Below are positions 39,855-58,547 of a stretch of DNA of 64,000 bases, piece after piece (the first letter of the stretch is position 1; every line of letters starts with the position of its first letter). Made by a program: the position numbers and the translations under genes. Under the pieces are notes generated by a model, which had not been told where the DNA came from, did no database searches, and saw only the letters and a list, made by a program, of their open reading frames with translations. The stretch covers positions 4,512,001 to 4,576,000 of the forward strand of contig CBDETK010000013.1 in the NCBI GenBank assembly GCA_965242865.1, written 5' to 3'. The stretch comes from Candidatus Latescibacterota bacterium. GTDB lineage: Bacteria; Latescibacterota; UBA2968; UBA8231.

Positions 39855-39869
39855 AGCACTGCGGCTTTC

Positions 39870-41996
39870 ATGGTTGGGCGGCCCCTAGGACGGATGCTCT
39901 CGATCCTGAAGCGTCTCAAAGGCCGGCGCGGCCAACGGCAACGGCTGTGGCTGCGCCTGCTGGGCTATTACCTCGCCTTGGGGCTGGTGCCGGTGTTGCT
40001 GGTCGATCTGTTCGTGTTGAACACGGCTCGGGCGGCCATTGAAGAGGCCGTGCTAGACAGCCGCCGCGAAATGGCCCACCGCACGGCCGAGGAGATCACC
40101 CACATCTTTTCTACCATCTCCTCCAACTTGCAACGCCTCGCCCAGTACGTGGCAACGGCAACCGAGCCGCAGGATGTGCCCGCGTTGCTCGAAAAGGCCG
40201 CGCTCGCAGACAGCGACGTGGAGGCCCTGTACCTAGTGGACAGCCAAAACCAAATACAGGCGGCGAGCGCGGCGATTGCGTGGCCCGCTTCCTACGACCC
40301 GGACGCGGCTTGGGCCAAGGTCGCGGCCGGCAGCCTGTACGTCGCCCTGCTCGAAGAATTTAAGGAGACGCCCAAGCTCTTTGTCGCGCTCCCGGTGGAA
40401 CGGGACGGTCAGCCGACTCAACAAGCCCTCCTCGCTCGCCTCGACTTTCACCGAGTCTGGCAAAAGATCGATCTCATCCACCTCGGCCGCACCGGGTACG
40501 CGACCTTGCTCCACGCCGACGATGGGCACTATCTGGCGCGGCCCATGCGCCAGGCCTTCTACTCGTGGCAACATCACCCGCACGTACAGGCCATGCGCGG
40601 GCCAGCCGGCATTCTCGCGTGGCGCGACACCGGGGGCACGGACTGGGTCACGGGGTTTGCGCCCGTGCGCGACTGGGGCTGGATCGTCGCCATTGAACAG
40701 CACGAGGACGAGGCGTATGCCCCGTACACCTTTGTGCTGTACGCGCTCTATGCGGTCATCGTGCTTTCGGCGCTCGGGTCCCTGATTTTGGGCGGCTTGA
40801 CGCGCAACTCGGTCGTCGCGCCCCTCGTCTTGCTCACCCACGCGGTGCGCCGCCGGCGAGACGGCTATCCCCTCCTCGGCGCTCCCACGGCGCGGCGCGA
40901 CGAAATCGGCGAACTAGCCGACGCTTTTGTCGAGCTGGACCAAACGCTGGCCAAACGCCAGCGCGACTTGCAGAGCACCTTGGACTTGCAGCACCATCTG
41001 ATCGAGGACAATCCCCTCGCGGTGGCCGTGCTCGACGCCGAGTACCGCATCGTACAGAGCAACAAGGCGTGGGCCGGCTTGCTGCTGCCGGCCCCGGCCG
41101 CCGCCTTGAGCGCGACCCCGGCCGGGGCCCAAGTGTGCGCGTGGCTAAAGGCCCATCCGACCGCGCAAGAGGTCGATAACCTCGCCATTGAGGATGGCAC
41201 GGTACACTATTGGAACCTGCGCACGGCCGCGCTGCGCCCCGGCCATCGCGGCACGCTCTTGCTCATGGTGGAAGACCAGACCCAGCAACACCTGCTGGAG
41301 CTGCACTACATGCAGGCCGAAAAGCTCTCGGCGCTCGGGGCGGTGGCCGCTGGCGTGGCCCACGAAATCAAAAACCCCCTCGCCATTGTGCAAAACACCT
41401 GCGACCTGCTGCCGCGGCTGGCCCCGGAAGAAAAGGAGGAGCGCGACGAGACCTTGCAGATGATGCGCGCGGCCATCCGCCGCATTGACGAGCGCGTCAG
41501 CAGCCTGCTCGACTTTGCCCGGCCGGCTCAGCACCGCGAGGAGCCGATCGACGCGGTCGCGGTGCTAGAGCAGCTCCTCGACTTGGAGACCAAACACGCC
41601 GAGCACCTCGGCATCTCGATTGAGCGCTGCTTTGAGCCGGTGCCCCCGGTGCTCATAAACCGCGACATGCTCAAAGACATCTACCTCAACATCATCCGCA
41701 ACGCCTTCCAAGCCATGCCCCAAGGCGGCCGCCTGCCCGTGAGCGGCCGCCCCACGCCCGCGGGCGTTGCCATAAAAATCTGCGACACTGGCACCGGCAT
41801 TGAGCCAACCCAGATCGCCCGCATCTTTGAGCCGTTCTTTTCGACCAAAGCCCCGGGCGAGGGCACGGGCTTGGGGCTGGCCATTGCCCAGCGTCAACTG
41901 CGAGAAATCGGCGGCCACATAGAGGTTGCGAGCCGCATTGGCAAAGGCACTTGCTTCGCGCTCTTGCTGCCGTACAATAGAGAGGAAAAGGCATAG
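39870..41996 (+). CDS. Sensor histidine kinase (Cache-like periplasmic, HAMP, PAS-like, HisKA, HATPase)
   Basis: Two TM segments, GRTGYA..L Cache-like motif, RDEIGELA HAMP, AGVAHEIKNPL, NIIRNA, DTGTGI, FEPFFSTK, GTGLGL. Confidence 0.93.
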   Translation: MVGRPLGRMLSILKRLKGRRGQRQRLWLRLLGYYLALGLVPVLLVDLFVLNTARAAIEEAVLDSRREMAHRTAEEITHIFSTISSNLQRLAQYVATATEPQDVPALLEKAALADSDVEALYLVDSQNQIQAASAAIAWPASYDPDAAWAKVAAGSLYVALLEEFKETPKLFVALPVERDGQPTQQALLARLDFHRVWQKIDLIHLGRTGYATLLHADDGHYLARPMRQAFYSWQHHPHVQAMRGPAGILAWRDTGGTDWVTGFAPVRDWGWIVAIEQHEDEAYAPYTFVLYALYAVIVLSALGSLILGGLTRNSVVAPLVLLTHAVRRRRDGYPLLGAPTARRDEIGELADAFVELDQTLAKRQRDLQSTLDLQHHLIEDNPLAVAVLDAEYRIVQSNKAWAGLLLPAPAAALSATPAGAQVCAWLKAHPTAQEVDNLAIEDGTVHYWNLRTAALRPGHRGTLLLMVEDQTQQHLLELHYMQAEKLSALGAVAAGVAHEIKNPLAIVQNTCDLLPRLAPEEKEERDETLQMMRAAIRRIDERVSSLLDFARPAQHREEPIDAVAVLEQLLDLETKHAEHLGISIERCFEPVPPVLINRDMLKDIYLNIIRNAFQAMPQGGRLPVSGRPTPAGVAIKICDTGTGIEPTQIARIFEPFFSTKAPGEGTGLGLAIAQRQLREIGGHIEVASRIGKGTCFALLLPYNREEKA

Positions 41997-41998
41997 CC

Positions 41999-43381
<1,383 letters not shown>

Positions 43382-43408
43382 CCTTGAACCGAACCTTAGG
43401 AGAAGGCC

Positions 43409-43618
43409 ATGTTGGAAATTCACAAGTACTATGTCCTCGACGAAAACCAAACTCCAATCGCCGTGCAGATTCCGCTGGCGGAATTTGAGCGTCTCGAAGA
43501 AGCCATAGAAAATTATGGCCTCGCGCAGCTAATGAACGAAGTACAAGACGAGGAACGTCTTACCGGCGAAGACGCCTATAATCACTATATGTCGATGTCG
43601 GCAGCCTCCCGCCTGTGA
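43409..43618 (+). CDS. Small antitoxin-like protein (orphan)
   Basis: 69 aa with AGGAG RBS; YVLDEN..PIAVQIP..EFERLEE..ENYGL resembles small type II antitoxins that normally precede RelE/ParE genes. Confidence 0.55.
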   Translation: MLEIHKYYVLDENQTPIAVQIPLAEFERLEEAIENYGLAQLMNEVQDEERLTGEDAYNHYMSMSAASRL

Positions 43619-43729
43619 CGCAGACCATTCTCGTCTGCGATTTACCGCCCTCCACTCCACATCAACACACCCCAACTGTCCGCTGGCGAACACCTGTTGT
43701 TCGCTGACGGACAGGGATGGTCCGCTAAA

Positions 43730-43894
43730 CGCGATGATTCGACGCACTTGTGCGATGTATCAAGGGCCTGCAAGACGAGCGAGAAAATTATCTTATTTTT
43801 TATAACGCATTGTTTAACAGTTATTTATGCTTTATGCCGCCAAAAAACAGGCGCGATTGGCGGCCATTGGGCCCCTCATTGGCACGATTGTTGC
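43730..43894 (+). promoter_or_regulatory. Sigma54 promoter + enhancer, copy A (second enhancer site truncated)
   Basis: TGGCACG-attg-TTGC at 43880-43894; upstream gcgatgattcgacgcacttgtgcgatgtatc; AT-rich IHF-like tract between. Confidence 0.88.
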
Positions 43895-43945
43895 AAATAA
43901 TGCTTGCAGAAGCAACAACCGCACTCTTCCACCAAGGAGGGCATC

Positions 43946-44743
43946 ATGCAACCCATAGCCATTCGCATCCTGTGCGTCGCCCTGCTCGCTGTCTCCAGCG
44001 CAGCGGCCGTTGAGACCAAGTACCCGCACGGCGGCTTCGCGCCCCGCCTCGACAAACTCCAGAGCTTGCTGGCTTACATCCACACCGCCGAGAAGATCGA
44101 GGTCAAAGCTGGCCCGGCGTTGTGGCAGGCGGTCGAAGCCATCCCCATCGCCACCGGCGTCCCGATCACGCCCGAGCAAGAAGCCGACCTGCGCAACTGG
44201 CTCTACGACTTTCTGGTCGCCTTTTCCGCCTCTGGCAACGACAGCCTCGCCGCCCAGTTCTACCTCCGCGAGGGCATCAACAACCCTACGGCCCTGAAGC
44301 ACATAAAGGAGACCTTAGCATCTTGGGGCATTCCCCAAGACGACACGCCCTTTGACCTCTTGCAGGCCATGCACCGCGCCGTACTCGACGCCCAAGGCTA
44401 CGAATACCGCTTTGGCCACGCCTTCTTCCGCCACAGCACCTTCAAGGTGTTTGAGATGCAGGGCCGCTATGAACCTTATCGGGCGTATCTGCGGAATGTC
44501 GTCAAGGCTAGGTTCAAATTGCAGCAAGAGGTGGAAGCGGCACTGCGCGCCGGCGAGAAGCGGGTTTTCGCGGACATCGCGTTTGTCGCCGAAGAGCCGG
44601 CCGAGGGCGCCGGGTCGGAAGGGCCGGTTTGCACTCCCTTCTTCTGTCGGCTGGTCTGGGATTCAGAGCGGGCGATGTGGCGCTTTGTAGAGGTCTTCTA
44701 CACCTCCAAGCGGCCAAATCCCTTTCTCTTTTCGGCCATGTAA
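43946..44743 (+). CDS. Secreted protein of unknown family, paralog 1
   Basis: Signal peptide AAA|VE; family motifs HGGF, LRNWLYDFLVAFSASG.DSLAAQFYLREG, RLVWD...MWR.VEVF. Confidence 0.85.
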   Translation: MQPIAIRILCVALLAVSSAAAVETKYPHGGFAPRLDKLQSLLAYIHTAEKIEVKAGPALWQAVEAIPIATGVPITPEQEADLRNWLYDFLVAFSASGNDSLAAQFYLREGINNPTALKHIKETLASWGIPQDDTPFDLLQAMHRAVLDAQGYEYRFGHAFFRHSTFKVFEMQGRYEPYRAYLRNVVKARFKLQQEVEAALRAGEKRVFADIAFVAEEPAEGAGSEGPVCTPFFCRLVWDSERAMWRFVEVFYTSKRPNPFLFSAM

Positions 44744-44815
44744 TCGAAATGCAAAACCTATCCTGCCCCGGAGTGATGGCTTAATCGCCGCCATTCCGGG
44801 GCCGCTTAACGGAAC

Positions 44816-44875
44816 TTGGTAGAGGCCTTCGCGCCGAATGACGCGCCGGTTCTCTTTTTGTTTAAGTCCACGTAA
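44816..44875 (+). pseudogene. C-terminal relic of an additional paralog
   Basis: LVEAFAPNDAPVLFLFKST* matches the paralog 5 end LVEIFASNDAPVLFVFKAL*. Confidence 0.75.
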
Positions 44876-44978
44876 GCTTGGAGGCCGCTTCAATTGCCCT
44901 AGGAGCCACACCAGCGGGGCGTCGTCTCGTTAGCAGGCGACGCCCCGTCGCAATCAACCAGCCCAAGCCGAAACCTCC

Positions 44979-45125
44979 ATCCCTATCGCCGCCACTGGGG
45001 GCGGCGACTGCGGGGGGGGCGCCGCCGCCCATTCCGCATCAACCACCGCGTCAGACGATACGCAAAAAATAGCAACGATCCCCCTCCCCTAGTGGTCGCC
45101 GCCCCTAGTGGCGGCGATGGGGACA
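44979..45125. repeat. Inverted pair of GC-rich REP-like palindromes
   Basis: tcgccgccactgggggcggcga (44986-45007) and inverted tcgccgcccctagtggcggcga (45096-45117); third copy at 54700. Confidence 0.75.
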
Positions 45126-45322
45126 TGCGATGTTTCGACGCACTTGTGCGATATATCCGCGCACTTTTAGGCCATCGAGAGCGCATTCAAAGGGCTTGAA
45201 AGACGGGAGAGAAAATTAGCGCATTTTTTTATAACATATTGTATAACAGGTAGTTATGAACATTATACCAAAGAAATCGACGCGATTATCACCCGCTGGT
45301 CGCCTATTGGCACGATAATTGC
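45126..45322 (+). promoter_or_regulatory. Sigma54 promoter + paired enhancer, copy B
   Basis: tgcgatgtttcgacgca (45126) and tgcgatatatccgcgca (45147); TGGCACG-ataa-TTGC at 45308-45322. Confidence 0.92.
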
Positions 45323-45381
45323 AATAATACTCACTGAAACGACAACCGGCACTCTCCACAGCAACAAAAAGGAGGTAATTT

Positions 45382-45458
45382 ATGAAGCACATCGTCCTAC
45401 TGGCTTGGGGCTTGCGGCCCTAGCGGCCAGTGCTTCCTCTCGGAGATCGCCTCCGAGA
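45382..45458 (+). promoter_or_regulatory. Leader element 1: uORF MKHIVLLAWGLRP* (45382-45423) + hairpin
   Basis: GGAGGT RBS; hairpin tctcggag-atcgc-ctccgaga at 45438-45458; homologs at 50332 and 51880. Confidence 0.6.
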
Positions 45459-45488
45459 CAACGCAGCAATTCTGAAAAGGAGTTCATC

Positions 45489-45698
45489 ATGAAACTGCAC
45501 ATCATCCGGCTGGCCATTGGCTTCACGGCCTTGGTCGCCGGCTTCCTGCCGCAGAAGGCGCAGGCACTGAATGAGTGCGATGCCAAATGCGGGGGATTTT
45601 TGGGCTTTGGTGCTAACAGGTGCAGCATATCGAGCCATGATAAGGATGTTAGGTGCTACTGCAACTCTGACAACAAGCCGGTATGCGAAATCGCCTAA
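45489..45698 (+). CDS. Secreted six-cysteine peptide 1 (69 aa; predicted 43 aa mature)
   Basis: AAGGAG RBS; MKLHIIRLAIGFTALVAGFLPQKAQA|LNECDAKCGGFLGFGANRCSISSHDKDVRCYCNSDNKPVCEIA; paralog at 51989. Confidence 0.88.
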   Translation: MKLHIIRLAIGFTALVAGFLPQKAQALNECDAKCGGFLGFGANRCSISSHDKDVRCYCNSDNKPVCEIA

Positions 45699-45825
45699 CG
45701 CATGAGTGTGCATTCCAACGCCTTGGGTAGTGGTTACTCGCCTATACCCAAGGGCAACCCAACAGGCGGCGGGTGGTTCTGACCGCTCGCCGCCCTAATA
45801 CCATACCAAGAACAAGGAGAATACC

Positions 45826-46656
45826 ATGAAACCCTTAGCCATTCGTATCTTGTCCGTCGCCCTGATCGCCGTCGCCAGCACAGCCATGGCCGAGCCTACA
45901 TCCCAATACGGCGGCTTTTCGTCCGACGTCGACAGCCTCCAGTTCTTCTACGACTATATCCACGGTCAAGAGATGATGAAGGTCGAGGCCGGTGATGAAT
46001 TGCGGCGTGCGATAGAGGCCATCCCCGTTGACTTGGGTACTGCCATCGATCTGGAGCAAGAAGCCGGGCTGCGCGATTGGCTCTACGATTTTCTCGTCGC
46101 CTTTTCGGCTTCGGGCAGCGATAGTCTCGCCGTTGCATTTTACATGCGAGAGGGGGCAACCAACTCCGACCTGATAGAGCAGGTGAGCAAGGAGGCCAAG
46201 AGTCAGGGAATCCTAACAGGCGATACCGACACGCCCCTTGCTTTCTTCCACAGCTTTCACAAGGTCGTGCTCAACATGGCAGAGCGCGATTATTTCTTCG
46301 CCAATGTGTCTTTCTTCGACAGCGTGTTCAAGGTGTTTGATATGCAGGAAGAATACGATAGCTATGAGTCCTACCTTGATACTCATGGCATGCTTCCCAA
46401 AGGCAGAGTGTTCTTCGAGCATATCAAACTACGGGAAGACGTCGAAAAACGCTTGCAGGGCGGTCCCCCCTTGGTCTTTGCCGACGTCATGTTCATCGTC
46501 GAGGAGCCCGAAGAGTTTACCACGTTTGAGACCCCGGGACGCACCCCGACCTTTTTTCGGCTACTCTGGGACGAAGAGCAGGCGATGTGGCGCCATGTAG
46601 AGGTCTATTTCAGCCATGGTGTGCCGCATGCGTTTCTTCTGTTCAACTTCATGTAA
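45826..46656 (+). CDS. Secreted protein of unknown family, paralog 2
   Basis: Signal peptide AMA|EP; YGGFSS, LRDWLYDFLVAFSASGSDSLA, RLLWD...MWRHVEVYF. Confidence 0.88.
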   Translation: MKPLAIRILSVALIAVASTAMAEPTSQYGGFSSDVDSLQFFYDYIHGQEMMKVEAGDELRRAIEAIPVDLGTAIDLEQEAGLRDWLYDFLVAFSASGSDSLAVAFYMREGATNSDLIEQVSKEAKSQGILTGDTDTPLAFFHSFHKVVLNMAERDYFFANVSFFDSVFKVFDMQEEYDSYESYLDTHGMLPKGRVFFEHIKLREDVEKRLQGGPPLVFADVMFIVEEPEEFTTFETPGRTPTFFRLLWDEEQAMWRHVEVYFSHGVPHAFLLFNFM

Positions 46657-46689
46657 TCCATCCTTACCACTAACGCGGGAGGAAAGATC

Positions 46690-47631
46690 ATGAACAAGCT
46701 AACGCTAAAAGCAGCGGTCGTAGCCGCCGTGCTCGGCACGAGCTGGACTCATGCCGACGAACTGCCGCAGACCGCCGAGTACGGCACCACCTACGACAGC
46801 GAGGGCACAGCCGGCCAAGTACGCTTTGTCGCACCCTACGACATGGAGATCGTCGCGGCTGAACCCGGCTGCGGCTGCACCGGCGTCGAGTTCCCCCAAG
46901 GGCTGTTGAAGGCCGGCGAATCTTACGCCATTTCCTATCAGATCGATACTCGGGGTCGCGCCGGGGCCTTTGCCTCCAGCATTGACTTCCGAGTGGCAGA
47001 CCAAGCCGACAAATGGCAGTTGCGATTGGAAGGCCAAGTTGTGCCCATGCTGCCCGGCAAGTTGCACTTAGGGACGATTCGAGGCGACGACCTAGCCTCC
47101 ATTATCCAACGCATTCCCCTTGTGCAGATCGACGGGCAGCCGCGCCAAATTCGCCAAGTCCAAGTCGCGGGAAAAGGCATCGAGGCAGCGGTGGTAGAAG
47201 GCGGCACCGCCCTAGCAATCGCCCCGGCAGCGGACCTGACGTGGGGAGATCGGATCATCGCCACCATTGAAGCGACGATTGCTGGCGAGAGCGAAGAGTA
47301 CGCCCGTTCCATCCAAGTGCGCGGACGGGTCAGCCCCCGCTTTAGTCTAGCACCACAGAGCGCGTCCTTCGGAGTGGGTGCCGCGCAACGGCGCGAGACG
47401 CTCCAAGTGCGCGTGGGCTTGCCTGCCGAGTTCGCCGACGCGCCCGTACAGACATCGCCTGTGTGCGACGAGGTGCAACTCGACATCGCATACCAACGGG
47501 AAGCCGACCATACCTTAGTCGTCCAGATCGGCAATGCGAGCGATTTCCCCGCTGGTACGCTCCACTGTGGGGTAGAAGTGCAAATCGGCGCGGAGCAGGT
47601 GCTGATACCCGTGCTGGCCCTGACGCGATAA
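46690..47631 (+). CDS. Secreted DUF1573-like (CGC motif) Ig-fold protein
   Basis: Signal peptide THA|D; EIVAAEPGCGCT..FPQGLLKAGES..I...DT.G..G pattern characteristic of DUF1573, followed by beta-rich repeats. Confidence 0.7.
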   Translation: MNKLTLKAAVVAAVLGTSWTHADELPQTAEYGTTYDSEGTAGQVRFVAPYDMEIVAAEPGCGCTGVEFPQGLLKAGESYAISYQIDTRGRAGAFASSIDFRVADQADKWQLRLEGQVVPMLPGKLHLGTIRGDDLASIIQRIPLVQIDGQPRQIRQVQVAGKGIEAAVVEGGTALAIAPAADLTWGDRIIATIEATIAGESEEYARSIQVRGRVSPRFSLAPQSASFGVGAAQRRETLQVRVGLPAEFADAPVQTSPVCDEVQLDIAYQREADHTLVVQIGNASDFPAGTLHCGVEVQIGAEQVLIPVLALTR

Positions 47632-47641
47632 GGAGGCCACC

Positions 47642-48643: not shown

Positions 48644-48685
48644 CAAAGGCAATAATCCACTCCTCAAACCTACAGGAGCCGCACC

Positions 48686-50257
48686 ATGATCGGCATTGTG
48701 TTCCAAAAAGAGATGCTCAGCCACCTGATCAGCCAGCGTTTTGCCGCTTGCACCGCCCTCGCTGTGGTGCTCATCATCGCCAACGGTATACTCACCAGCC
48801 AGATTTATGTCCAGAAAAGGGGCAGCTATTTCACTCAACGTGCTGTTGAGGAGACCAAACTGCCCGAAATCACGTATTATTCGGTTCTAGGCTCAGACTT
48901 CAACAGTTCCGACAGGGTTCCACTCTTCGACGAGGCGGCGCCGCGCGCCTTACGGCCCCCGCGCCCCTTAGAGGTGTTTGCCCAAGGCGTCGAACAAGAG
49001 GTGGGACAGGCCGTCAAGGTCCTGCTCTTTGAGGTGCCCTACCAAACCGAGGCTATCGCGTCCTCCGAGTCGATCAATCCCTACCTCGCCATCTTTGCCT
49101 CCTTTGACGTGGTGTACATCTTCCAGCTCGTGCTCAGCCTGCTGGCCATTCTCATCGCCAGTGAGACCATCTCCGGCGAGAAGGAGGACGGCACGTTGCG
49201 GCTGATGCTAACGACCAACGTCAGCCGCGCCCAAGTCCTCGCTGGCAAAATCCTCGCCGGCCTGACCACGCTGGCCATTCCAACCGCTCTCGGCTTTATC
49301 CTGCTGACGATCTTGCTGTTGGGCACGGAGTATATCGAAGTCGGGACCGGCGAGTGGGCGCGGTTGGGGCTGCTGTTCGCGCTGTCGCTTTTGTATCTGC
49401 TGGTGTTCTATCTGATTGGGTTGGTGATCTCGTGCGCCACGCACCGCTCGGCCACCAGCTTGATCGTCGCGCTGTTTGCGTGGGCCTTGCTGGCGATTGT
49501 GCTGCCCGACAGTATCACGGCCTTGCTCAACGAGCAGGCCAACATGGGCGAAAAACACAAGCAAGCTCATCACAAGGCCGCGCAGGTGTGGAATAAGTTC
49601 GACCAAGAGGTCGCCGATCTCGCTCGGGCGCACAGCCAGATCCAGTACCCTCCTGTACAGATGGTTGAGCAGTTCACGCACCCGGTTCGCGGAGCGGAAA
49701 TCACCTTTTCGTTCCCTGGCGAATACTCTTACAGTAACGAGCAGGCACCCGCTCTCTATCTCTCTAGTGTGGTCGATTCGCCCTCGCTCGCCGAGTTCCA
49801 AGACATCATCCGCACCGGCGAGCGGTTGCGCCTGAAGTACGCCCAGCGCGCTTGGAACGCCAAAGCCCCCTTGCTCGAAAACTTCCCCCGCCGCATCCAA
49901 CGCTGGAACGGCTGGCTCCAACGCCTCTTGCCCGCCGGTGCGTACGCCCAAGCCGCCAGTGCTTTCGCCGGCACCAGCCGACGCGAATACTACGACTTTA
50001 TCGACCAAGCCCGCACCTATCGCGGGCAAGTCATCGCCTTTCTCGAAGAGCGCGATGCGTTTGGCTCTCGCGAGTGGTTCAACGACGATCCCGGCTGGCG
50101 AGCCGACCTGCGCGACCTGCCGCGGTTTAACGAGCGCGGCTGGACCGTCGCCCAGAGCCTGAGCCATGCCTTGCCTGATCTAACGGCCCTGCTGCTGTAT
50201 GCGACCGTGCTCTTTGGCCTCGCCAACCGACTCTTTGGGCGCTACGACGCCAAATGA
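48686..50257 (+). CDS. ABC-2 type transporter permease, paralog A1
   Basis: IVFQKE start, ETISGEKEDGTLRLML.TNVSR..VLAGK, about 6 TM segments with large extracytoplasmic loops. Confidence 0.85.
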   Translation: MIGIVFQKEMLSHLISQRFAACTALAVVLIIANGILTSQIYVQKRGSYFTQRAVEETKLPEITYYSVLGSDFNSSDRVPLFDEAAPRALRPPRPLEVFAQGVEQEVGQAVKVLLFEVPYQTEAIASSESINPYLAIFASFDVVYIFQLVLSLLAILIASETISGEKEDGTLRLMLTTNVSRAQVLAGKILAGLTTLAIPTALGFILLTILLLGTEYIEVGTGEWARLGLLFALSLLYLLVFYLIGLVISCATHRSATSLIVALFAWALLAIVLPDSITALLNEQANMGEKHKQAHHKAAQVWNKFDQEVADLARAHSQIQYPPVQMVEQFTHPVRGAEITFSFPGEYSYSNEQAPALYLSSVVDSPSLAEFQDIIRTGERLRLKYAQRAWNAKAPLLENFPRRIQRWNGWLQRLLPAGAYAQAASAFAGTSRREYYDFIDQARTYRGQVIAFLEERDAFGSREWFNDDPGWRADLRDLPRFNERGWTVAQSLSHALPDLTALLLYATVLFGLANRLFGRYDAK

Positions 50258-50331
50258 GGGGCCTGAAATTTTCTAACCTTTTTTTACGGCAACGTCATTA
50301 CTTACTTACAGACAGAACGGAGGTAACGCTT

Positions 50332-50407
50332 ATGAAGCACATCGTCTCAACGGGCTTGGGCTCGCAGCCCTAATAGCCCGTGCTTCCCCTCGGAGATCGC
50401 CTCCGAG
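50332..50407 (+). promoter_or_regulatory. Leader element 2: uORF MKHIVSTGLGSQP* (50332-50373) + hairpin
   Basis: GGAGGT RBS; ctcggag-atcgc-ctccgag at 50389-50407; no peptide gene follows. Confidence 0.6.
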
Positions 50408-50448
50408 ACAACGCAGTAAACCCGAAAAGCAACTCAGAAGAGGTCCAG

Positions 50449-51273
50449 ATGAAAACTTTGTATTTCGCCCTAATCGCCGCTTGGTTCGCTGTCGCCAGCG
50501 TCCCTGCCGAGCCGAAAACCCAGTACGGCGGTTACTCCATGCACCCCGACAGCATCCAAGCCTCTCTCCAAGCCTTTCACGATTATGCCAACAGCTTAGA
50601 GATGATAAACGTCGAGGCCGGGGACGAGTTGCAGCAGGCCATCGCCGGCATCCCCGTCAAGGGGGACACTCCCATCACTCCCGCGCAAGAAGCCGACCTG
50701 CACACCTATCTCTACGATTTCTTAGTCGCCTTTTCGGTTTCGAGTAGCGACAGCCTCGCCGCCGCGTTTTACCTCCGCGAGGGCGTCAATAACCCCGAAG
50801 GGATAGAGAAGTTAAAAAACGAGCTTGCAAGCGAGGGCCTTCTAAAAGGCGATACGCCTTTTGACATCCTCAAAGCGGGACACCGGCAACTCCTCGATAG
50901 GCATGACTGCGATTACTACTTGGGAAAGGTATCCTTTTTCGACAGCGCGTTTGAGGTGTCCGAGAGGCAGGCCGAGTATAGCTCTTATTTCAGGTCTCTC
51001 ATGGGCCGCGGCATGTTTCCACCTGGGGCCGGTTCGGGTACCTTTGCTAAAATGAAGAGCGAGGTCCAAGAGCACCTGCAAGCGGGCAAACCGCAGACCT
51101 TTGTGGAGGTCATGTTCATCGTCGAAGAGCCCGAAGAGTTCGCCGCCTTTGAGGGAGCAGCGCACTTCCCGTTCTTCCTCCGCATCGCTTGGGATCCAGA
51201 CAAGACTATGTGGCGTCATGTCGAGATCATTTACGGCCTCGGGAGGCCGTATTTTCTGTTCAGTTACATCTAG
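50449..51273 (+). CDS. Secreted protein of unknown family, paralog 3
   Basis: MKTLYFALIAAWFAVASVPA|EP; YLYDFLVAFSVSSSDSLAAAFYLREG; RIAWDP..MWRHVE. Confidence 0.88.
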   Translation: MKTLYFALIAAWFAVASVPAEPKTQYGGYSMHPDSIQASLQAFHDYANSLEMINVEAGDELQQAIAGIPVKGDTPITPAQEADLHTYLYDFLVAFSVSSSDSLAAAFYLREGVNNPEGIEKLKNELASEGLLKGDTPFDILKAGHRQLLDRHDCDYYLGKVSFFDSAFEVSERQAEYSSYFRSLMGRGMFPPGAGSGTFAKMKSEVQEHLQAGKPQTFVEVMFIVEEPEEFAAFEGAAHFPFFLRIAWDPDKTMWRHVEIIYGLGRPYFLFSYI

Positions 51274-51342
51274 GCATAGGTATGCGCTGGGCCGCGTCTT
51301 CCCACGTGAAGGCGGCGGCCCGGTATTTTCTGTTTTCCCTCA

Positions 51343-51468
51343 ATGCTAGCAGCCATTGTAAAACGGGAACTGATCGATCTCCTCATCAGCCTGCGCCTTG
51401 GCTTAGCCCTCGTGCTGACCGTAGGGCTGAGCTGGCCTACCGAGCGTGGCTGCACACCAGCATCGTAA
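51343..51468 (+). pseudogene. Internally deleted remnant of a type-B ABC-2 permease
   Basis: First ~88 nt match the start of 53166 (atgctagc.gccattgtaaaacg.gaactgatcgat..gtagggctga), fused directly to its last ~36 nt (gctggcctaccgagc.tggct.c.c.ccagcatcgt). Confidence 0.88.
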
Positions 51469-51622
51469 CCAGCCCAAGACCGAAATCTCCGCCCGTCAGC
51501 CCACCTCCACCGCATCTTTGCCGCCCGTTCCGCATCAACCACCGCGTCAGACGATAAGCAGAATATAGCAGCGATCCCCTTCAACGCAGCCGAACCTGCG
51601 CCGCAACCAACCGCCATGCCTG

Positions 51623-51818
51623 TGCGATGTTTCGACGCACTTGTGCGATGTATCCGCGCACTTTTAGGCCATCAATAGCACATTCAAAGGGCCTGAAAGA
51701 CGGACGAGAAATTAATTTATTTTTTTATAACATATTGTATAACAAGTATTTATGAAAATTATAAGAAAGAAATCGACATGATTATCACCTGCTGGCCGCC
51801 TATTGGCACGATAATTGC
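51623..51818 (+). promoter_or_regulatory. Sigma54 promoter + paired enhancer, copy C
   Basis: tgcgatgtttcgacgca (51623), tgcgatgtatccgcgca (51644); TGGCACG-ataa-TTGC at 51804-51818. Confidence 0.92.
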
Positions 51819-51879
51819 GATAATACTTACTGAAACGACAACCGGCATTCTCCACAGCAACAGAACGGAGGTAACGCTT

Positions 51880-51972
51880 ATGAAGCACATCGTCTCAACT
51901 GGTTCGGGGCTTGTCCCTAGCGGCCAGTGCTTCTCCTCGGAGATCGCCTCCGAGAGTACGCAACCAACTTAA
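51880..51972 (+). promoter_or_regulatory. Leader element 3: uORF MKHIVSTGSGLVP.. (30 aa) + hairpin
   Basis: GGAGGT RBS; hairpin ctcggag-atcgc-ctccgag at 51936-51954; here the uORF reads through the hairpin. Confidence 0.55.
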
Positions 51973-51988
51973 AGTAAAGGAGCGCATC

Positions 51989-52165
51989 ATGAAGACGCGC
52001 ATCATCCGGCTGGCCATTGGCTTCACGGCCTTGGTCGCCAGCTTCCTGCCGCAGAAGGCCGAGGCTATTGGGTGCTTCATCAAGTGCGGTTCCGATTTCT
52101 GCTTCGCAATTGGTGAGCACGCCAAGTGCGAGTGCAAAAACGGTAACGCGGTATGCAGTGCCTAA
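51989..52165 (+). CDS. Secreted six-cysteine peptide 2 (58 aa; predicted 32 aa mature)
   Basis: AAGGAG RBS; MKTRIIRLAIGFTALVASFLPQKAEA|IGCFIKCGSDFCFAIGEHAKCECKNGNAVCSA. Confidence 0.88.
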   Translation: MKTRIIRLAIGFTALVASFLPQKAEAIGCFIKCGSDFCFAIGEHAKCECKNGNAVCSA

Positions 52166-52277
52166 TCAGCCTTCAGGGGCGGCTGGTCTAGGCCGCTCCA
52201 CCCAACGCGCCCCGGAATGGCACCTTAATCACCGCTATTCCGGGGCAACCTAACCCAAACCCAGAAGAGGTATAAAG

Positions 52278-53120
52278 ATGAAAACGCTGTATTTCACCCT
52301 AATCGCCGCTTGGTTCGCCCAGTATGCGTGCGTAGAACGGGAAGCCGACTCCAGCCTTACCGTCATGCCTCCTAAGTCCCAGTATGGGGGCTTTTCATCC
52401 CACCCCGACAGTCTGCAAATTTTCTATGACTACATCCATGGTCAGAAGATGATGAAGATCGAAGCCGGGGCCGAATTGCGGCAGGCTGTCGAGGCGATCC
52501 CCGTTGATCTGGGTGCTCCCATTGACCTAGCGCAAGAAGCCGCATTGCGCGATTGGCTCTACGACTTCTTAGTAGTCTTTTCGGCTTCGGGTAGCGACAG
52601 CCTCGCCGCCGCGTTTTACCTCCGCGAGGGCACGAATAACCCCGACGGGTTAGAATTCCTGAAAGAGTATCTCGCTAGCAGAGACGTCCCGACAGGCGAT
52701 ACGCCCTTTGCCATGTTTGCAGCCGGGCATAGAACAATACTCGGCATAGCGAAACGCGATTACTTTTTCGAGAGCGTGTCCTTTTTCGACAGCGCGTTTA
52801 AGGTATTTGAAATGCAAGAGGCGTACGATAGCTATGCGTTATACCTCCAGACGCATGGCATGGTCCCCAAAGGCACCTTGAATTTTCACCCCAAACTATA
52901 CGACGAGGTTGAGGAAGCTCTACAGGCCGGCGAGTCGTTGATTTTCGCCGACATCATGTTCATCGTCGAAGAGCCGGCAGGGGTCTCCGATTGGCCGTGG
53001 CAGGGGCGCACCCCGTCCTTCTGTCGGCTAGTCTGGGATCCAGAACGGGCTATGTGGTGCCATGTAGAGGTCTATTTCAGCGTCGGTGTGCCGCAAAACT
53101 TTCTGTTCAACCTCATATAA
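52278..53120 (+). CDS. Secreted protein of unknown family, paralog 4 (possible lipoprotein)
   Basis: MKTLYFTLIAAWFAQYAC; YGGFSSHPDSLQ, LRDWLYDFLV, RLVWDPE.AMW.HVEVYF. Confidence 0.88.
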   Translation: MKTLYFTLIAAWFAQYACVEREADSSLTVMPPKSQYGGFSSHPDSLQIFYDYIHGQKMMKIEAGAELRQAVEAIPVDLGAPIDLAQEAALRDWLYDFLVVFSASGSDSLAAAFYLREGTNNPDGLEFLKEYLASRDVPTGDTPFAMFAAGHRTILGIAKRDYFFESVSFFDSAFKVFEMQEAYDSYALYLQTHGMVPKGTLNFHPKLYDEVEEALQAGESLIFADIMFIVEEPAGVSDWPWQGRTPSFCRLVWDPERAMWCHVEVYFSVGVPQNFLFNLI

Positions 53121-53165
53121 TCTACCTTTGCCGATGCCGATGACTCTAAAGAAGGAGACCCCTCA

Positions 53166-54611: not shown

Positions 54612-54699
54612 AGACAGCCTTCGTCGCCCCACATTTCCAGATCAAAGTGGGTCGTTCCTAGACCGGCTACCTCCATATCCCTCGAGAGGCATCGGGGGA

Positions 54700-54852
54700 T
54701 AGTCGCCGCCACTGGGGGCGGCGACTACGGTGGGGGCGGCGACGGCGGCGACGGCAACGATGGCGATGGCGATGGCGACGACGACCGCGACAGCGATGGC
54801 GACGACCGCGACGACTGCAACGACAACAGCGACAGCAACGATGGCGGCGACC
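54700..54852. repeat. REP-like palindrome followed by degenerate GGCGAC/GGCGAT-type microsatellite
   Basis: tagtcgccgccactgggggcggcgacta, then about 115 bp of ggcgac/ggcaac/ggcgat/gcgac units. Confidence 0.8.
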
Positions 54853-54853
54853 A

Positions 54854-55049
54854 TGCGATGTTTCGACGCACTTGTGCGATATATCCGCGCACTTTTAGGC
54901 CGTCAAAAGGGCTTTGCAAAGGATTTGAAAGCGGGGCAATAAATCAGCTCATTTTTTACAACATATTGTATAACAGACAGTTACGAACACTCTATCAAAG
55001 AAATCGGCGCGATTATCACCCGCTGGTCGCCTACTGGCACGATAATTGC
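54854..55049 (+). promoter_or_regulatory. Sigma54 promoter + paired enhancer, copy D
   Basis: tgcgatgtttcgacgca (54854), tgcgatatatccgcgca (54875); TGGCACG-ataa-TTGC at 55035-55049. Confidence 0.92.
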
Positions 55050-55086
55050 AATAATACTTACTGAAACTCAAACCAAGGAGGACACC

Positions 55087-55968
55087 ATGCAACCCGTAGC
55101 CATTTTCGCCCTGCTCGCCATCGCCAGCACCGCTATGGCCGAGCCTAAGCATCCGCACGGTGGCTTTTCATCTCACCCCGACAGCCTCCAAGTCTATCTC
55201 GACTACCTCAACAGCTTGGATATGATCAAGGCCGAGGCCGGTGATGAATTGCGGGAGGCCGTCGAGGCCATCCCCGTCAAGCCGAGCATTCCCATCACTC
55301 CTGTACAAGCAGCCGACCTGCGCGACTGGCTCTACGACTTCCTCGTCGCCTTTTCCGTCTCCGGCAGCGACAGCCTCGCCGCGACTTTCTACTTGCGCGA
55401 AGGCGTTGAGGACTCAGAGGCGATACAGCAGATGAAAAAGGACTTGGAAAGCGGGCCCAGTCTCAAAGATAAAGCCATGATAAAAATGCTAAAGGCAGCG
55501 GGGATCACTATTTCCCTCCCCGAGCCGGTCTCTGATGCGGGCGATACGCCCCTTGCCATCTTAGCAACCCAGCACCGACAAATCCTCGCCACAAAGGGGC
55601 GCGATTATTTCTTCGGCAACCTTTCCTTTCTTGGCAGTGCGTTCGAGGTGTTAGAGATGCAAGGCGAGTATGATAGCTATGGGGATTACGTCCAAACCCA
55701 CGGTTTGCTCCCCCAAGGGCCTATGTGGTGGCCGCCCAAGCTGAAAAAAGAAATTGAGAAAAAGCTACAGGCGGGTGAGCAGCGCATCTTTGCCCAATTC
55801 ACGTTCATCGCCGAAGAGCCCGAAGAGTGCGCCGACTTTGAAACGGGGCCGATGCGCTTCCCGTTTTTCGTCCAACTCGTCTGGAGTCCCCAGAAGAATA
55901 TGTGGCGGCTCGTAGAAATTTTCGCGTCTAATGACGCGCCGGTTCTGTTTGTATTCAAGGCCCTATAA
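55087..55968 (+). CDS. Secreted protein of unknown family, paralog 5
   Basis: AAGGAGG RBS; signal AMA|EP; HGGFSSHPDSLQ, LRDWLYDFLVAFS, QLVWSP..MWRLVE. Confidence 0.88.
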   Translation: MQPVAIFALLAIASTAMAEPKHPHGGFSSHPDSLQVYLDYLNSLDMIKAEAGDELREAVEAIPVKPSIPITPVQAADLRDWLYDFLVAFSVSGSDSLAATFYLREGVEDSEAIQQMKKDLESGPSLKDKAMIKMLKAAGITISLPEPVSDAGDTPLAILATQHRQILATKGRDYFFGNLSFLGSAFEVLEMQGEYDSYGDYVQTHGLLPQGPMWWPPKLKKEIEKKLQAGEQRIFAQFTFIAEEPEECADFETGPMRFPFFVQLVWSPQKNMWRLVEIFASNDAPVLFVFKAL

Positions 55969-56024
55969 TCCGCCCATGCTCATGCGGAAGCCTAAAAAGA
56001 CGAACTCAAACCAAGGAGGACACC

Positions 56025-56915
56025 ATGCAATCCGTAGCCATTTTCGCCCTACTCGCCATCGCCAGCACCGCTATGGCCGAGCCTGAGCACCACTACGGCG
56101 GCTTTTCGCCCGACGCCGCTGGCCAGCAAGTCTATCTCGACTACCTCAACCGCTTGGAGATGTTCCAAGTCGAGGCCGGGGCCGAGTTGCAGCAGGCCGT
56201 CGAGGCCATCCCCGTCGAGCCAGACATCCCCATCACTGCCGAGCAAGAGGCCGACTTGCGCGACTGGCTCTACGACTTCCTCGTCGCCTTTTCCGCTTCC
56301 GGCAGCGACAGCCTCGCCGCCGAGTTCTACTTGCGCGCAGGGGTGGATGACCCGGACCAGATCCAAGAGATAAAAGAGCGCTTGGAACGCGGCCCTAGCC
56401 CCGAAGAAATCGCTGCAATACAGCAGTTTCAAGAGCAGGCAAAGGCGGCGGGCCTCGCGGTGAGCATCCCCATCCCCGAGCCGATCCCCAATGCCGGCGA
56501 TACGCCCCTTGCCATCGTAACGACCCAGCACCGACAAATCCTCAACGCGAAGGGATGCGATTCCTTCTTCGACAACGCCTCCTTGTTCGCCAGCGCGTAT
56601 CGCGTGTTCGAGTTGCAAGGAGCCTACGAGCGCTATTGGGACTATATCGAGGTCCACGACCTGCTCCCTGTGAACCCTAAGAGTTCGTTGCGCATGGACG
56701 ACGAGATGAAGGCGGCTCTACAGGCCGGCGAAAAATGGGTGGCCGCTCAGTTCATGGTCATCGTCGAGGGGCCGGACGAGTGTGCCGACTTTGAAACCGG
56801 GCCGATGCGCTTCCCGTTTTTCGTGCGCCTCGTCTGGAGTCCAGAAAAGGCTATGTGGCGGCTCTTAGAAATCGTCATGCCGAACAGCGCGCCGGTTCAG
56901 TTTTCATTCTTGTAG
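56025..56915 (+). CDS. Secreted protein of unknown family, paralog 6
   Basis: Tandem duplicate of paralog 5 with near-identical RBS and signal region; same family motifs. Confidence 0.88.
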   Translation: MQSVAIFALLAIASTAMAEPEHHYGGFSPDAAGQQVYLDYLNRLEMFQVEAGAELQQAVEAIPVEPDIPITAEQEADLRDWLYDFLVAFSASGSDSLAAEFYLRAGVDDPDQIQEIKERLERGPSPEEIAAIQQFQEQAKAAGLAVSIPIPEPIPNAGDTPLAIVTTQHRQILNAKGCDSFFDNASLFASAYRVFELQGAYERYWDYIEVHDLLPVNPKSSLRMDDEMKAALQAGEKWVAAQFMVIVEGPDECADFETGPMRFPFFVRLVWSPEKAMWRLLEIVMPNSAPVQFSFL

Positions 56916-56963
56916 CCCGCAGATCGCCCCTGAGACTGCGCTCGAACCCACAGGAGCCGCATC

Positions 56964-58547
56964 ATGATCGGCATTGTGTTCCAAAAAGAGATGCTCAGCC
57001 ATCTGCTCAGCCAGCGCTTCGCCGCTTGCACCATCCTCGCTGTCGTACTGATCCTCGCCAACGGCGTCCTCACGACTCAGACCTACGTCCACAAAAAGGC
57101 CAGCTACTTCACCCAGCGGGCCACTGAGGACAGCAAACTGCACGAAATCACCTATTATTCGGCCCTAGGCTGGGACTGGTTAGTCTCGACTACCTTTGGT
57201 CTCACAGCAAAGGTCAAGGCGGCTCCGCGTGCGCTACGGGCTCCGCGTCCCTTAGCGGCGTTCGCCCGAGGAGCCGAACGACAGGCCGGGCAAGCCGTCA
57301 AGGTGCTGCTCTTCGAGGTGCCCTACCAAGCCGAGGAAGTCTCGCCCTTCCAGTCGAGCAACCCTTATCTCGCCATCTTTGCCTTCTTCGACATGGTGTA
57401 CATCTTCCAACTCGTGCTCGGCTTGCTGGCCATCCTCATCGCCAGCGAGACCATTTCCGGCGAGAAGGAGGACGGCACCCTGCGGCTGATGTTGGCGACC
57501 AACGTCAGCCGCGCCCAAGTCCTCGCCGGCAAAATCCTCGCGGGTTTGACCACGCTGGCCATTCCCACGGCTCTCGGCTTCATCCTGCTGACGATCTTGC
57601 TGTTGGGCACGGAGCAGATCGACGTCGGGGCGGGCGAGTGGGCGCGGGTAGGCTTGCTGTTGGTGCTATCGCTGCTGTATCTGCTGGTGTTCTATTTGAT
57701 TGGACTGGCGATCTCGTGCGCGACGCACCGCTCGGCGACCAGCTTGATCGTCGCGCTGTTTGCGTGGGCATTGCTGGCGATAGTGCTGCCCAACAGCATC
57801 TCGGCGTTGCTCAACGAGCAGGCCAACATGGGGGAAAAGCATGCCCAAGCTCATCACAAGGCCGCGCAGGTGTGGCAGGAGTTCGATCAGGAGGTCACCG
57901 ACCTCGCCCGGGCGCACGGTCAGACGAAGTACTTTCCCACAGATATGGTCGAGCGGAACTATATAAAGGGACGCGGGGCTGTAACCTACGACGACGGCAC
58001 TGGAACCTATTCCAACTGGGGAAGAAACGAGCAAAAGCCCCATGTCTATCTATCGAGTGTCGCCGATACACCCGCGCTGACAAAATTCCAAGACATCGTC
58101 CGCACTGGCGAGCGGCTGCGCCTGAAATACGCCCAGCGCGCTTGGAACGAGAAGGCTCCCCTCCTCGAAGGATTCCCCCGCCGAATCCAACGCCTCAACG
58201 ACCAACTCCAACGCCTGCTGCCCGCCGGTGCGTACGCTCAAGCCGCCAGCCTGCTCGCTGGCACCAGCCGCCGTGAATACGACGATTTCATCGACCAAAC
58301 CCGCACCTATCGCGGGCAGATCATCGCCTTCCTCGAAGAGCGCGATGCGTTTGGCTCCCGCGAGTGGTTCAACGACGATCCCGGCTGGCGCGCCGACCTG
58401 CGCGACCTGCCGCGATTTGCCGAGCGCGGCTGGACCGTCGCCGAGAGCGTGCGCCATGCCTTACCGGCACTGACCTCCCTGCTGCTGTATGCGACCGTGC
58501 TCTTTGTCCTCGCCAACCGCCTCTTCGCCCGCTACGACGTGATGTGA
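56964..58547 (+). CDS. ABC-2 type transporter permease, paralog A2
   Basis: Closely similar to 48686-50257, with divergence concentrated in two extracytoplasmic segments. Confidence 0.85.
   Translation: MIGIVFQKEMLSHLLSQRFAACTILAVVLILANGVLTTQTYVHKKASYFTQRATEDSKLHEITYYSALGWDWLVSTTFGLTAKVKAAPRALRAPRPLAAFARGAERQAGQAVKVLLFEVPYQAEEVSPFQSSNPYLAIFAFFDMVYIFQLVLGLLAILIASETISGEKEDGTLRLMLATNVSRAQVLAGKILAGLTTLAIPTALGFILLTILLLGTEQIDVGAGEWARVGLLLVLSLLYLLVFYLIGLAISCATHRSATSLIVALFAWALLAIVLPNSISALLNEQANMGEKHAQAHHKAAQVWQEFDQEVTDLARAHGQTKYFPTDMVERNYIKGRGAVTYDDGTGTYSNWGRNEQKPHVYLSSVADTPALTKFQDIVRTGERLRLKYAQRAWNEKAPLLEGFPRRIQRLNDQLQRLLPAGAYAQAASLLAGTSRREYDDFIDQTRTYRGQIIAFLEERDAFGSREWFNDDPGWRADLRDLPRFAERGWTVAESVRHALPALTSLLLYATVLFVLANRLFARYDVM

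Follow-up and report, generated by a model that had tools for sequence, protein, structure and literature searches.

Within a 64-kb stretch of the genome of a Candidatus Latescibacterota bacterium (the window, to which coordinates without prefix refer; genome G000, 6.0 Mb), a gene cluster at 39870-58547 combines a kinase and a sigma-54 activator with promoter modules that precede shuffled cassettes of secreted six-cysteine peptides, ABC-2 permeases and a family of secreted partner proteins, here called P. From its gene content this cluster appears to be one half of a larger genus-specific system, the other parts of which are encoded at a second locus in the same genome. In our estimate there is an even chance that the whole produces secreted disulfide-rich peptides on induction, exports them and guards the cell against them. 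Neither P nor the peptides extend beyond one genus of Candidatus Latescibacterota, and the target of the peptides could be rival bacteria, a sponge host or the cells' own kinase.

In the mechanism that we favour, a periplasmic signal, possibly the peptides themselves, would activate the kinase, after which the phosphorylated activator would occupy the upstream sites and open the sigma-54 promoters. The precursors would be exported by Sec, their 26-amino-acid signal peptide being cut after A-x-A and three disulfides being made in the periplasm, and they may be glycosylated before export by cytoplasmic GT2 and GT1-transglutaminase proteins. A pump composed of permeases 1 and 2, an ATPase, a NEW3-domain protein and a TolC-like channel would clear peptides from the periplasm or the outer membrane leaflet, and periplasmic NTF2-like P proteins would be the peptides' binding partners, ferrying them to the pump or giving self-protection. 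Duplication and recombination of the cassettes, of which relics are seen, would generate new combinations of peptide, P and permease.

The second locus lies near the end of contig C13 (5.6 Mb; the prefix C13 marks contig coordinates in the same genome) and contains two more copies of the upstream site with its -24/-12 element. Besides more P genes, the end and start of this contig (L009 and L010; L-numbers label individual loci of the system) carry type-1 and type-2 permeases in pairs, as well as another three genes for peptides. Also encoded there are a NEW3-domain protein of 503 amino acids with an N-terminal signal, an N-terminal coiled region and a C-terminal transmembrane segment, a TolC-family channel (PF02321, 1.3e-34), an ABC ATPase (PF00005), an extracytoplasmic function (ECF) sigma factor, a second DUF1573 protein, a GT2 glycosyltransferase (PF00535, 1e-26; best named models EpsD and MftF, below cut-off) and an 839-amino-acid fusion of a GT1 (macrolide-GT-like) domain with a transglutaminase-like domain. 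An earlier note on this DNA had stated that no modifying enzyme is present, which holds inside the window but not for the second locus, which has the same upstream site and -24/-12 element and contains the GT2 and GT1-transglutaminase genes. The permeases that it listed are present but are not orphans, as their pump partners (ATPase, NEW3 protein and TolC-like channel) are found at the second locus. Both ends of C13 fall inside a P-family gene (L009 15396-15566, the N-terminal 57 amino acids; L010 2-220, the C-terminal 72 amino acids), so we infer that they join into one locus; the assembly probably broke within repeated cassettes. Selenocysteine was considered for the GT1-transglutaminase paralogs and rejected, the recurrent '1 TGA' being an ordinary stop codon.

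A pattern scan with one genome per species returned 50 related loci, all of them from metagenome-assembled genomes (MAGs) labelled Candidatus Latescibacterota or, in five records, 'Gemmatimonadetes/ota'. P genes occur in 49 of these loci, permeases in 22-23, peptides in 15 (by tblastn), GT2 in 14 and the upstream site in 24, and about half of the loci hold a single P1-type gene only. In its full form (L049, L051) the system reads histidine kinase, response regulator, GT1-transglutaminase, GT2 and permease 1, then an upstream site with -24/-12 element followed by leader, peptide, two P genes, permease 2, DUF1573 and TPR genes, and finally a second site with -24/-12 element ahead of the NEW3, TolC and ATPase genes. 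In a minimal form (L012, L030, L048) histidine kinase and response regulator genes are followed by an upstream site, P, permeases 1 and 2, NEW3, TolC and ATPase genes, and then a -24/-12 element before a P1-type gene. Kinase orthologs adjoin the system in L013, L025, L048 and L049, the DUF1573 gene keeps its place ahead of the TPR gene in L041, L044, L051 and L054, and the GT2 and GT1-transglutaminase genes share a cluster with peptides in relatives, a peptide gene being present in 13 of the 14 GT2-bearing loci.

Across genomes, P matched 24 of the 30 other genomes of the genus, none of 45 genomes of the family's other genera and none of 92 from the rest of the phylum, and the peptide profile matched 12 of the 30, all 12 of which also have P, and none of the 45; the genomes compared are close kin and these and the following counts are therefore not independent. 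A close NEW3 ortholog (at least 71% identity) is present in 11 of the 12 peptide-bearing genomes, the exception being a 340-contig assembly, and 78 of 168 genomes searched across the phylum encode distant homologs of NEW3, at 27-40% identity. The GT1-transglutaminase fusion was found in 21/30 genomes of the genus, 11/45 of the family's other genera and 0/92 elsewhere, with several paralogs per genome. That the parts co-occur in other genomes, a check set beforehand, was thus borne out by the 50 loci, the genus-wide counts and a conserved operon in relatives.

All genes of the window cluster lie on the + strand (gene calls and Pfam), in the order histidine kinase, sigma-54 activator, RelB-like gene and then fourteen more genes in the same direction (Table 1). 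The inventory of the earlier note agrees well with this map: the kinase/activator pair and the four same-strand promoter copies lie where it had placed them, its shuffled cassette combinations are confirmed by the gene and repeat map, and the MKHIV leader (in three copies), the two secreted six-cysteine peptides with a Sec-type leader, the six P genes with a relic of a 3' end, the three ABC-2 permeases with a relic, the DUF1573-like protein and the TPR protein were all recovered. Hydropathy places the transmembrane segments of the kinase at 35-53 and 289-307. N-terminal hydrophobic signals are predicted for P, DUF1573 and NEW3 proteins, and the glycosyltransferases and the TPR protein lack a transmembrane segment.

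Table 1. Features of the window cluster, in window coordinates
Feature	Position	Strand	Evidence
Sensor histidine kinase; periplasmic dCache between two transmembrane segments, then HAMP, PAS, HisKA, HATPase	39870..41996	+	Pfam
NtrC-family sigma-54 activator; receiver, AAA+ with GAFTSA loop, HTH_8	41999..43381	+	PF00158 4.8e-68, PF00072, PF02954
RelB-like antitoxin gene	43409..43618	+	PF18506 2.7e-27
Promoter module 1: upstream site GCGATGaTTCGACGCACTTGTGCGAT, AT-rich middle, then TGGCACGATTGTTGC	43731..43895	+	motif search, repeat families, alignment
P1, secreted paralog of the P1-type clade, likely NTF2-like	43946..44743	+	
Relic of a P-gene 3' end, 51 nt	44819..44869	+	repeat family D18: 78% / 63% identity to ends of P5 / P6
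Promoter module 2: upstream site, AT-rich middle, TGGCACGATAATTGC	45127..45323	+	motif search, repeat families, alignment
5' leader: strong Shine-Dalgarno, MKHIV mini-ORF (13 codons), variable hairpin H1, invariant hairpin CTCGGAG-ATCGC-CTCCGAG	45382..45457	+	
Peptide A precursor: 26-aa signal peptide and 43-aa core, C-3-C-10-C-10-C-1-C-7-C	45489..45698	+	
P2, paralog after peptide A; the one modelled	45826..46656	+	
Secreted DUF1573 (Ig-like) protein	46690..47631	+	PF07610 5.8e-08
TPR protein, predicted cytoplasmic: no signal peptide, no transmembrane segment	47642..48643	+	Pfam, topology prediction
ABC-2 permease type 1: six transmembrane segments, two large outward loops, the second DUF3526	48686..50257	+	PF12679 1e-23, PF12040
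Leader copy (MKHIV mini-ORF and hairpin) without promoter or peptide gene, fused directly to P3	50332..50407	+	
P3, grouped with P genes found after class-I peptides elsewhere	50449..51273	+	
Type-2 permease relic: 5' and 3' ends, middle deleted	51337..51470	+	repeat family D15; tblastn 86% over 29 aa
Promoter module 3	51624..51819	+	motif search, repeat families, alignment
Leader with MKHIV mini-ORF open for 30 codons; hairpin 51936-51954	51880..51972	+	
Peptide B precursor: 26-aa signal peptide and 32-aa core, C-3-C-4-C-8-C-1-C-6-C	51989..52165	+	
P4, clade of the 'second P' of peptide-P-P cassettes in relatives	52278..53120	+	
ABC-2 permease type 2: six transmembrane segments, DUF3526 loop	53166..54611	+	PF12679 5.7e-27
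Promoter module 4, leading straight to P5 without leader	54855..55050	+	motif search, repeat families, alignment
P5, with 20-30 aa insertion	55087..55968	+	
P6, 62% identical to P5	56025..56915	+	
Second type-1 ABC-2 permease, 79% identical to that at 48686	56964..58547	+	
ORF, open reading frame; nt, nucleotides; aa, amino acids.

The exact sequence TGGCAC-N5-TTGC occurs four times in the window, always on the + strand and inside the cluster (43880, 45308, 51804 and 55035). A chance estimate that counts matches with at most one mismatch gave 8 found against 6.33 expected, not significant alone; the argument for promoters comes from the four exact copies sitting in conserved modules of about 250 nt, which align at 77% mean column identity, and not from the number of matches. 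Each -24/-12 element is preceded, at a distance of 132-164 nt, by an upstream site that contains a CGCAC-TT-GTGCG dyad, and an AT-rich stretch separates the two. The stricter pattern TGGCACG-N4-TTGC[AT] matches 22 places in the 6.0-Mb genome, five of them in the two loci of the system, and the 19-nt upstream site (at most three substitutions) was found six times genome-wide, in every case before cassettes of these two loci. The hallmarks of sigma-54 promoters were thus found together: the spacing of -24 GG and -12 GC, the upstream sites, an AAA+ activator with GAFTSA loop, and rpoN (C13:441926). Adjacency of the activator gene and exclusivity of the sites suggest that this activator binds them.

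Runs of GGCGAC/GGCGAT-type triplets stand directly 5' of the activator site of modules 2 and 4 (44986-45027 and 54700-54850) and also before a module at the second locus (L009, about 9900-9950); they could be recombination scars or spacer DNA. A second type of sigma-54 module is present on the minus strand of C13 in five near-identical copies (379643, 390078, 397899, 405583 and 411017, a spacing of ~5-10 kb), in which three directly repeated copies of CACGGAAAATCGTGTA precede an AT-rich stretch and TGGCACGCAATTTGCT, and the gene that comes next begins MQKLREFF; the genome therefore uses copied enhancer-promoter modules for another gene family as well.

Promoters 2 and 3 are each succeeded by a leader in which a strong Shine-Dalgarno sequence, the MKHIV mini-ORF, a variable hairpin and a near-invariant hairpin precede the peptide gene. 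The mini-ORF ends (TAA) straight after MKHIV in 8 of 15 aligned leaders from this and related genomes and is longer in the rest, and in the first hairpin a U-A pair is replaced by G-C through a double change in 4 of the 15 sequences, the second hairpin hardly varying. The leader is a real and conserved element, and translational control is our guess at its role; its overall folding energy lies within the ordinary range (z -1.9 and +0.3), and no Rfam family came near its gathering score in 43300-59000. The spacers between peptide and P genes (45696-45826 and 52163-52278) each fold into a pair of strong stem-loops that lack U-tails (z -4.0 and -4.3); none of 200 shuffles folded as stably, and these structures may determine how much peptide transcript is made relative to downstream transcript.

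The two precursors of the window, of 58 and 69 amino acids, consist of near-identical 26-residue signal peptides and a remainder with six cysteines. An iterated hidden Markov model collected 31 precursor genes from the related loci and the main contig, three of which are duplicates from overlapping loci, and 136 peptide clusters were found at E<=0.01 in a large protein collection, none of them with a Pfam family and with 'hypothetical protein' as their sole annotation. In an alignment of 20 precursors none of the six cysteines varies, and 111 of the 120 best clusters (of 136) have exactly six past the signal peptide. Frameworks among these 111 include C-3-C-4-C-8-C-1-C-7-C (37 clusters), C-3-C-4-C-8-C-1-C-6-C (12), C-3-C-17-C-6-C-3-C-6-C (12), the peptide A type C-3-C-10-C-10-C-1-C-7-C (9) and C-3-C-4-C-4-C-1-C-6-C (8). 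Across 12 gene pairs, the ratio of non-synonymous to synonymous substitution rates (dN/dS) has a median of 0.27 in the leader and of 0.86 in the core, with the invariant cysteine codons counted, and one related locus (L054) holds three precursors whose leaders are identical at 26 of 26 residues. A further class at the second locus has a CC pair (framework 0-9-2-5-13) and a related but distinct signal peptide, and is flanked by a gene for an ECF sigma factor and a degenerate duplicate of that gene (L009 14063-14566, 14706-14900 and 14994-15377; L010 311-502).

AlphaFold2, run on the full precursor with 49 sequences, predicts a signal helix followed by a four-stranded all-beta core (mean pLDDT 81.2, core 83-89). 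Foldseek returned nothing for this model at E<=0.001, and VIA-align gave two rows only, at Z about 2 and both on the signal helix; on this full-precursor model a new fold for the core is a candidate at most. By sequence, the best profile hit among solved structures was a plant defensin-like protein at E 4.6, and peptide A was without match. The CxxxC and CxC motifs, which in a cysteine-stabilised alpha-beta defensin sit on a helix and on the beta strand bonded to it, are present, but this class was rejected on the AlphaFold2 prediction of an all-beta core without helix. As to knottins, in which six cysteines pair 1-4, 2-5 and 3-6 into a knot, the third loop between cysteines counts 8 residues, which we take to exceed the usual knottin range, and no fold match was obtained.

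Conserved signal, hypervariable core and fixed cysteine framework also bring to mind the conotoxin superfamilies, in which these three features are combined, and the genes described here share with them the few frameworks and the multigene expansion; unlike conotoxins, they are bacterial, stand in operons with a pump, have no propeptide region and match no solved toxin by sequence or fold. It is in our view distinctly unlikely that the products are host-directed effectors or signals, venom-like disulfide-rich mini-proteins acting on sponge cells or grazers, with P as folding or holding chaperones. The confinement of the family to one genus, whose public relatives are MAGs, the difference in dN/dS between core and leader, and the listing, in passages of PMC7883664, of bins of the naming series SB06xx and PNGco_C among sponge-symbiotic bacteria would suit such a role, as would sections 10-12 of PMC12426817, in which barrettides alone among cysteine-bridged peptides of sponges are given a host origin; a sponge habitat is presumed for the present genome. 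The lack of likeness to any solved peptide structure speaks against it, as do the absence of a host-interaction domain from the locus and the pump with periplasmic binders, which is typical of self-protection against membrane-active peptides. We regard as equally improbable the bolder picture of a sponge symbiont's venom-like arsenal, in which recombining three-disulfide mini-proteins of a new all-beta fold would each have their own NTF2-like partner and permease under a single sigma-54 enhancer-module switch. If it were true, the host or its enemies would be the target of the peptides, which might be glycosylated, and symbionts would be a genuine source of cysteine-bridged peptides isolated from sponges.

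In the favoured peptide-making and self-protecting system, P would be the binding partner of the peptides. The six window paralogs (265-296 amino acids, with N-terminal signal peptide) share 44-49% identity with P1 and 60% mean column identity, and none of them matched a Pfam or NCBIfam family; a distant match, P0299 (E 5.7e-4), is likewise without Pfam family. The family comprises at least 494 clusters at 90% identity, and 62 matches, many of them short fragments, were found among 1.84 billion representative proteins. The model of P2 (pLDDT 78.8, pTM 0.80) sets N-terminal helices against a curved sheet; the NTF2-like fold is a cone-shaped alpha+beta barrel with three helices against such a sheet. 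Because Foldseek found nothing for it at E<=0.001 while the top 50 rows of VIA-align are nearly all NTF2-like (Z 4.5-6.4, over residues about 70-268; best match 4xzz_A with Z 6.4, root-mean-square deviation 3.9 and 127 residues aligned), we keep an NTF2-like fold as likely but not secure; the ESM Atlas (best score 0.89, named NTF2-clan DUF families at 0.83-0.85) offers leads only. A conserved hydrophobic tail, P-x-x-F-x-F-x-x-(I/L/M), closes every paralog (e.g. 44714-44740); it is modelled at low confidence, its P267, F270 and F273 are invariant in 50 sequences, and it could be a docking or sorting signal.

The link between P and the peptides is seen mainly in gene order and phylogeny. A full-length P gene follows the peptide gene in 25 of 31 cases, the three duplicates included, at a gap of 68-202 nt. 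In a quick maximum-likelihood tree of 104 P sequences, one clade with SH-aLRT support of 100 has 10 of its 12 rows, from different genomes, behind class-I peptides, small separate clades follow the peptide-A type and the 3-4-7-1-7 type, and the label 'follows a peptide' changes 15 times compared with 22.1 times in shuffles, none of 500 shuffles being as low. A complex prediction for P2 (residues 23-276, with alignment) and mature peptide A scored 0.01 and gave no verdict either way. Elsewhere on C13 a lone P1-type gene, 85% identical to P1, stands after a PreP/M16 peptidase gene (C13:3559067-3559843, minus strand), and ~30 kb from it lies a second kinase/activator pair (C13:3588131-3591638, minus strand), 44% and 60% identical to the pair of the window.

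A predicted NTF2-like fold could also serve a lipid or glycoconjugate exporter, in which P proteins would be MlaC-like periplasmic carriers of a small hydrophobic or glycosylated molecule made by the glycosyltransferases and moved by the ABC-2/TolC pump, the peptides being only autoinducers of the kinase. Glycans and lipids are common cargoes of ABC-2 transporters, the GT1 domain is similar to glycosyltransferases of natural products, invariant polar residues across the P paralogs suggest one common ligand, and one structural match of P is a periplasmic toluene-tolerance (MlaC-type) carrier, 8dte. We hold this very unlikely, however: the 8dte match is weak (Z 4.5), the minimal form has P and pump without glycosyltransferases, these enzymes go with peptide genes in 13 of the 14 GT2-bearing loci, and no genes for lipid or sugar-precursor synthesis are found in the clusters examined.

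Several observations weigh against the peptide-making and self-protecting system that we prefer. The minimal form is without peptide, glycosyltransferase, DUF1573 or TPR gene, and six genomes have P and the NEW3 ortholog with no detected peptide; P and pump would therefore have a role that needs no home-made peptides. Within P itself, the P1-type clade, the largest of the tree with 31 rows, never stands after a peptide gene, the PreP-linked copy is without sigma-54 site, and many polar residues are invariant across paralogs, which would fit a common ligand or catalytic site better than binding of hypervariable peptides. The clustering of P clades with peptide classes could be mere inherited synteny, and the NTF2 assignment stands on Z values of 5-6.4, middling for this aligner. 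The GT2 has generic matches only and the GT1 domain resembles small-molecule glycosyltransferases. Finally, the ABC ATPase gene (C13:5611186-5611922, L009 13186-13922) changes frame twice relative to its L051 ortholog, running in frame 1, then for 29 amino acids in frame 2 and then in frame 3; it is either a pseudogene or affected by assembly errors, and genuine breaks would leave this strain without a working pump, the next-best ATPase of the genome being only 37% identical.

The peptide-free loci, and the six genomes with P and the NEW3 ortholog in which no peptide was detected, speak for a sensing-and-detoxification core, in which the kinase would detect a foreign toxic compound or peptide in the periplasm and induce the pump and NTF2-like binders, much as in the Bce-type and LanFEG/LanI-type resistance modules, home-made peptides and glycosyltransferases having been recruited later under the same promoters. 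The distant NEW3 homologs, found so widely in the phylum that this type of pump is older than P and the peptides, would agree with it, and so would the nearest models of the GT1 domain, macrolide-type glycosyltransferases including the self-immunity OleI type, all far below cut-off. The minimal form, the P1-type clade, the invariant polar residues of P and the possibly broken ATPase gene are the main points against our preferred reading and sustain this alternative, which is nevertheless fairly unlikely: in 25 of 31 cases a P gene directly follows a peptide gene, with one type of promoter for both, the clades of P go along with classes of peptide, peptides, P and permeases are always combined in the amplified cassettes, and a single conserved signal peptide on hypervariable peptides would be left unexplained. 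The earlier note's reading of the locus as a peptide system is retained in part: the binding, immunity or maturation roles that it proposed for P are putative, and the peptides are present but not core, as related species have a peptide-free form of P and pump, and the minimal form marks them as an add-on to a pump-plus-P core.

The permeases of types 1 and 2 are about 25% identical to each other. The first 94 nt of the permease relic are 94% identical to the 5' end of the gene at 53166, and this relic together with the tree placement of P3 and P4 suggests that a canonical unit, through duplication and deletion, gave rise to the cassettes of the window. Contigs from four DNA runs break at the repeated parts when compared with 39800-58700, so that strain variation is unreadable from them, and joints such as 46657 -> 56952 correspond to the paralogous second locus. 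No RNA sequencing run was found to cover 45100-48700. The cluster is bordered by housekeeping-like genes, a CBM9-like protein being encoded at one end and a UbiA-family prenyltransferase at the other. The RelB-like gene between activator and promoter 1, with no adjacent toxin gene visible and a counterpart in one of the 50 related loci, is probably a passenger. The segment 32001-36000 has a G+C content of 0.48-0.56, compared with about 0.60-0.65 in the rest of the window.

Two new protein families from one genus of an uncultured phylum thus stand in a conserved, visibly recombining and clearly regulated cluster. The bacterial origin of disulfide-rich sponge peptides becomes directly checkable, as the predicted cores give exact masses and short synthesis targets, and peptides of this kind, small, probably very stable and without match among solved structures, are unexplored scaffolds. 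Moreover, a single enhancer-dependent module copied before shuffled cassettes makes a compact model for diversification of a repertoire under one switch. No account of this system appears in the full-text literature searched (main texts), in sections 10-12 of PMC12426817 or in the passages of the Latescibacterota genome paper PMC12993501, which give only antiSMASH classes and generic 'bioactive peptides'.

Among known systems, SCIFF and ranthipeptides differ in that no radical SAM match was found among the proteins scanned at either locus. The prochlorosin-type families of peptides that are made on ribosomes and modified after translation join one leader to many cores, and here too many precursors combine a near-identical N-terminal region with divergent cores, but the leader is a typical signal peptide and there is no lanthionine synthetase. 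MacAB-TolC exports the Sec-delivered, DsbA-folded heat-stable enterotoxin, a route that resembles the proposed sequence of Sec export, periplasmic disulfides and an ABC pump with TolC-family channel; the permeases described here are of the ABC-2/DUF3526 and not of the MacB type, and no HlyD-type adaptor was found, a NEW3-domain protein standing in its place and possibly filling that role. Glycocins such as sublancin and glycocin F are disulfide-stapled peptides glycosylated by a GT2 enzyme of the SunS/GccA type, and the small disulfide-rich peptides and co-occurring GT2 genes recall them. Six cysteines, e.g. C-3-C-4-C-8-C-1-C-7-C, nevertheless replace the two nested C-x6-C pairs of glycocins, a Sec signal is present with no C39-ABC exporter found in either locus, and the GT2 has generic matches only; glycosylation of the peptides is putative.

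A parallel is also offered by lantibiotic-type producer loci, with their LanRK regulation, LanFEG ABC-2 immunity pump and LanI binding protein. As in these, precursor, pump and binding-protein genes would be under two-component control, the membrane part is a pair of ABC-2 permeases with one ATPase, and a putative extracytoplasmic binding protein is encoded beside the precursor; the permeases match the MutG model at E 0.035 and the SagH model at 5e-5, both far below the cut-offs. Conversely, the leader is a Sec signal peptide and not a dedicated one, Pfam and NCBIfam scans of ten window proteins and of the second-locus proteins gave no match to LanB, LanC, LanM, LanKC, LanL, a leader-specific protease or a C39 peptidase, the regulator is a sigma-54 activator instead of an OmpR-type protein, the pump has NEW3 and TolC-like partners for the outer membrane, and P has no sequence relative outside the genus. 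By this analogy the logic of the system resembles that of lantibiotic-type producer loci, and its parts and regulatory design differ.

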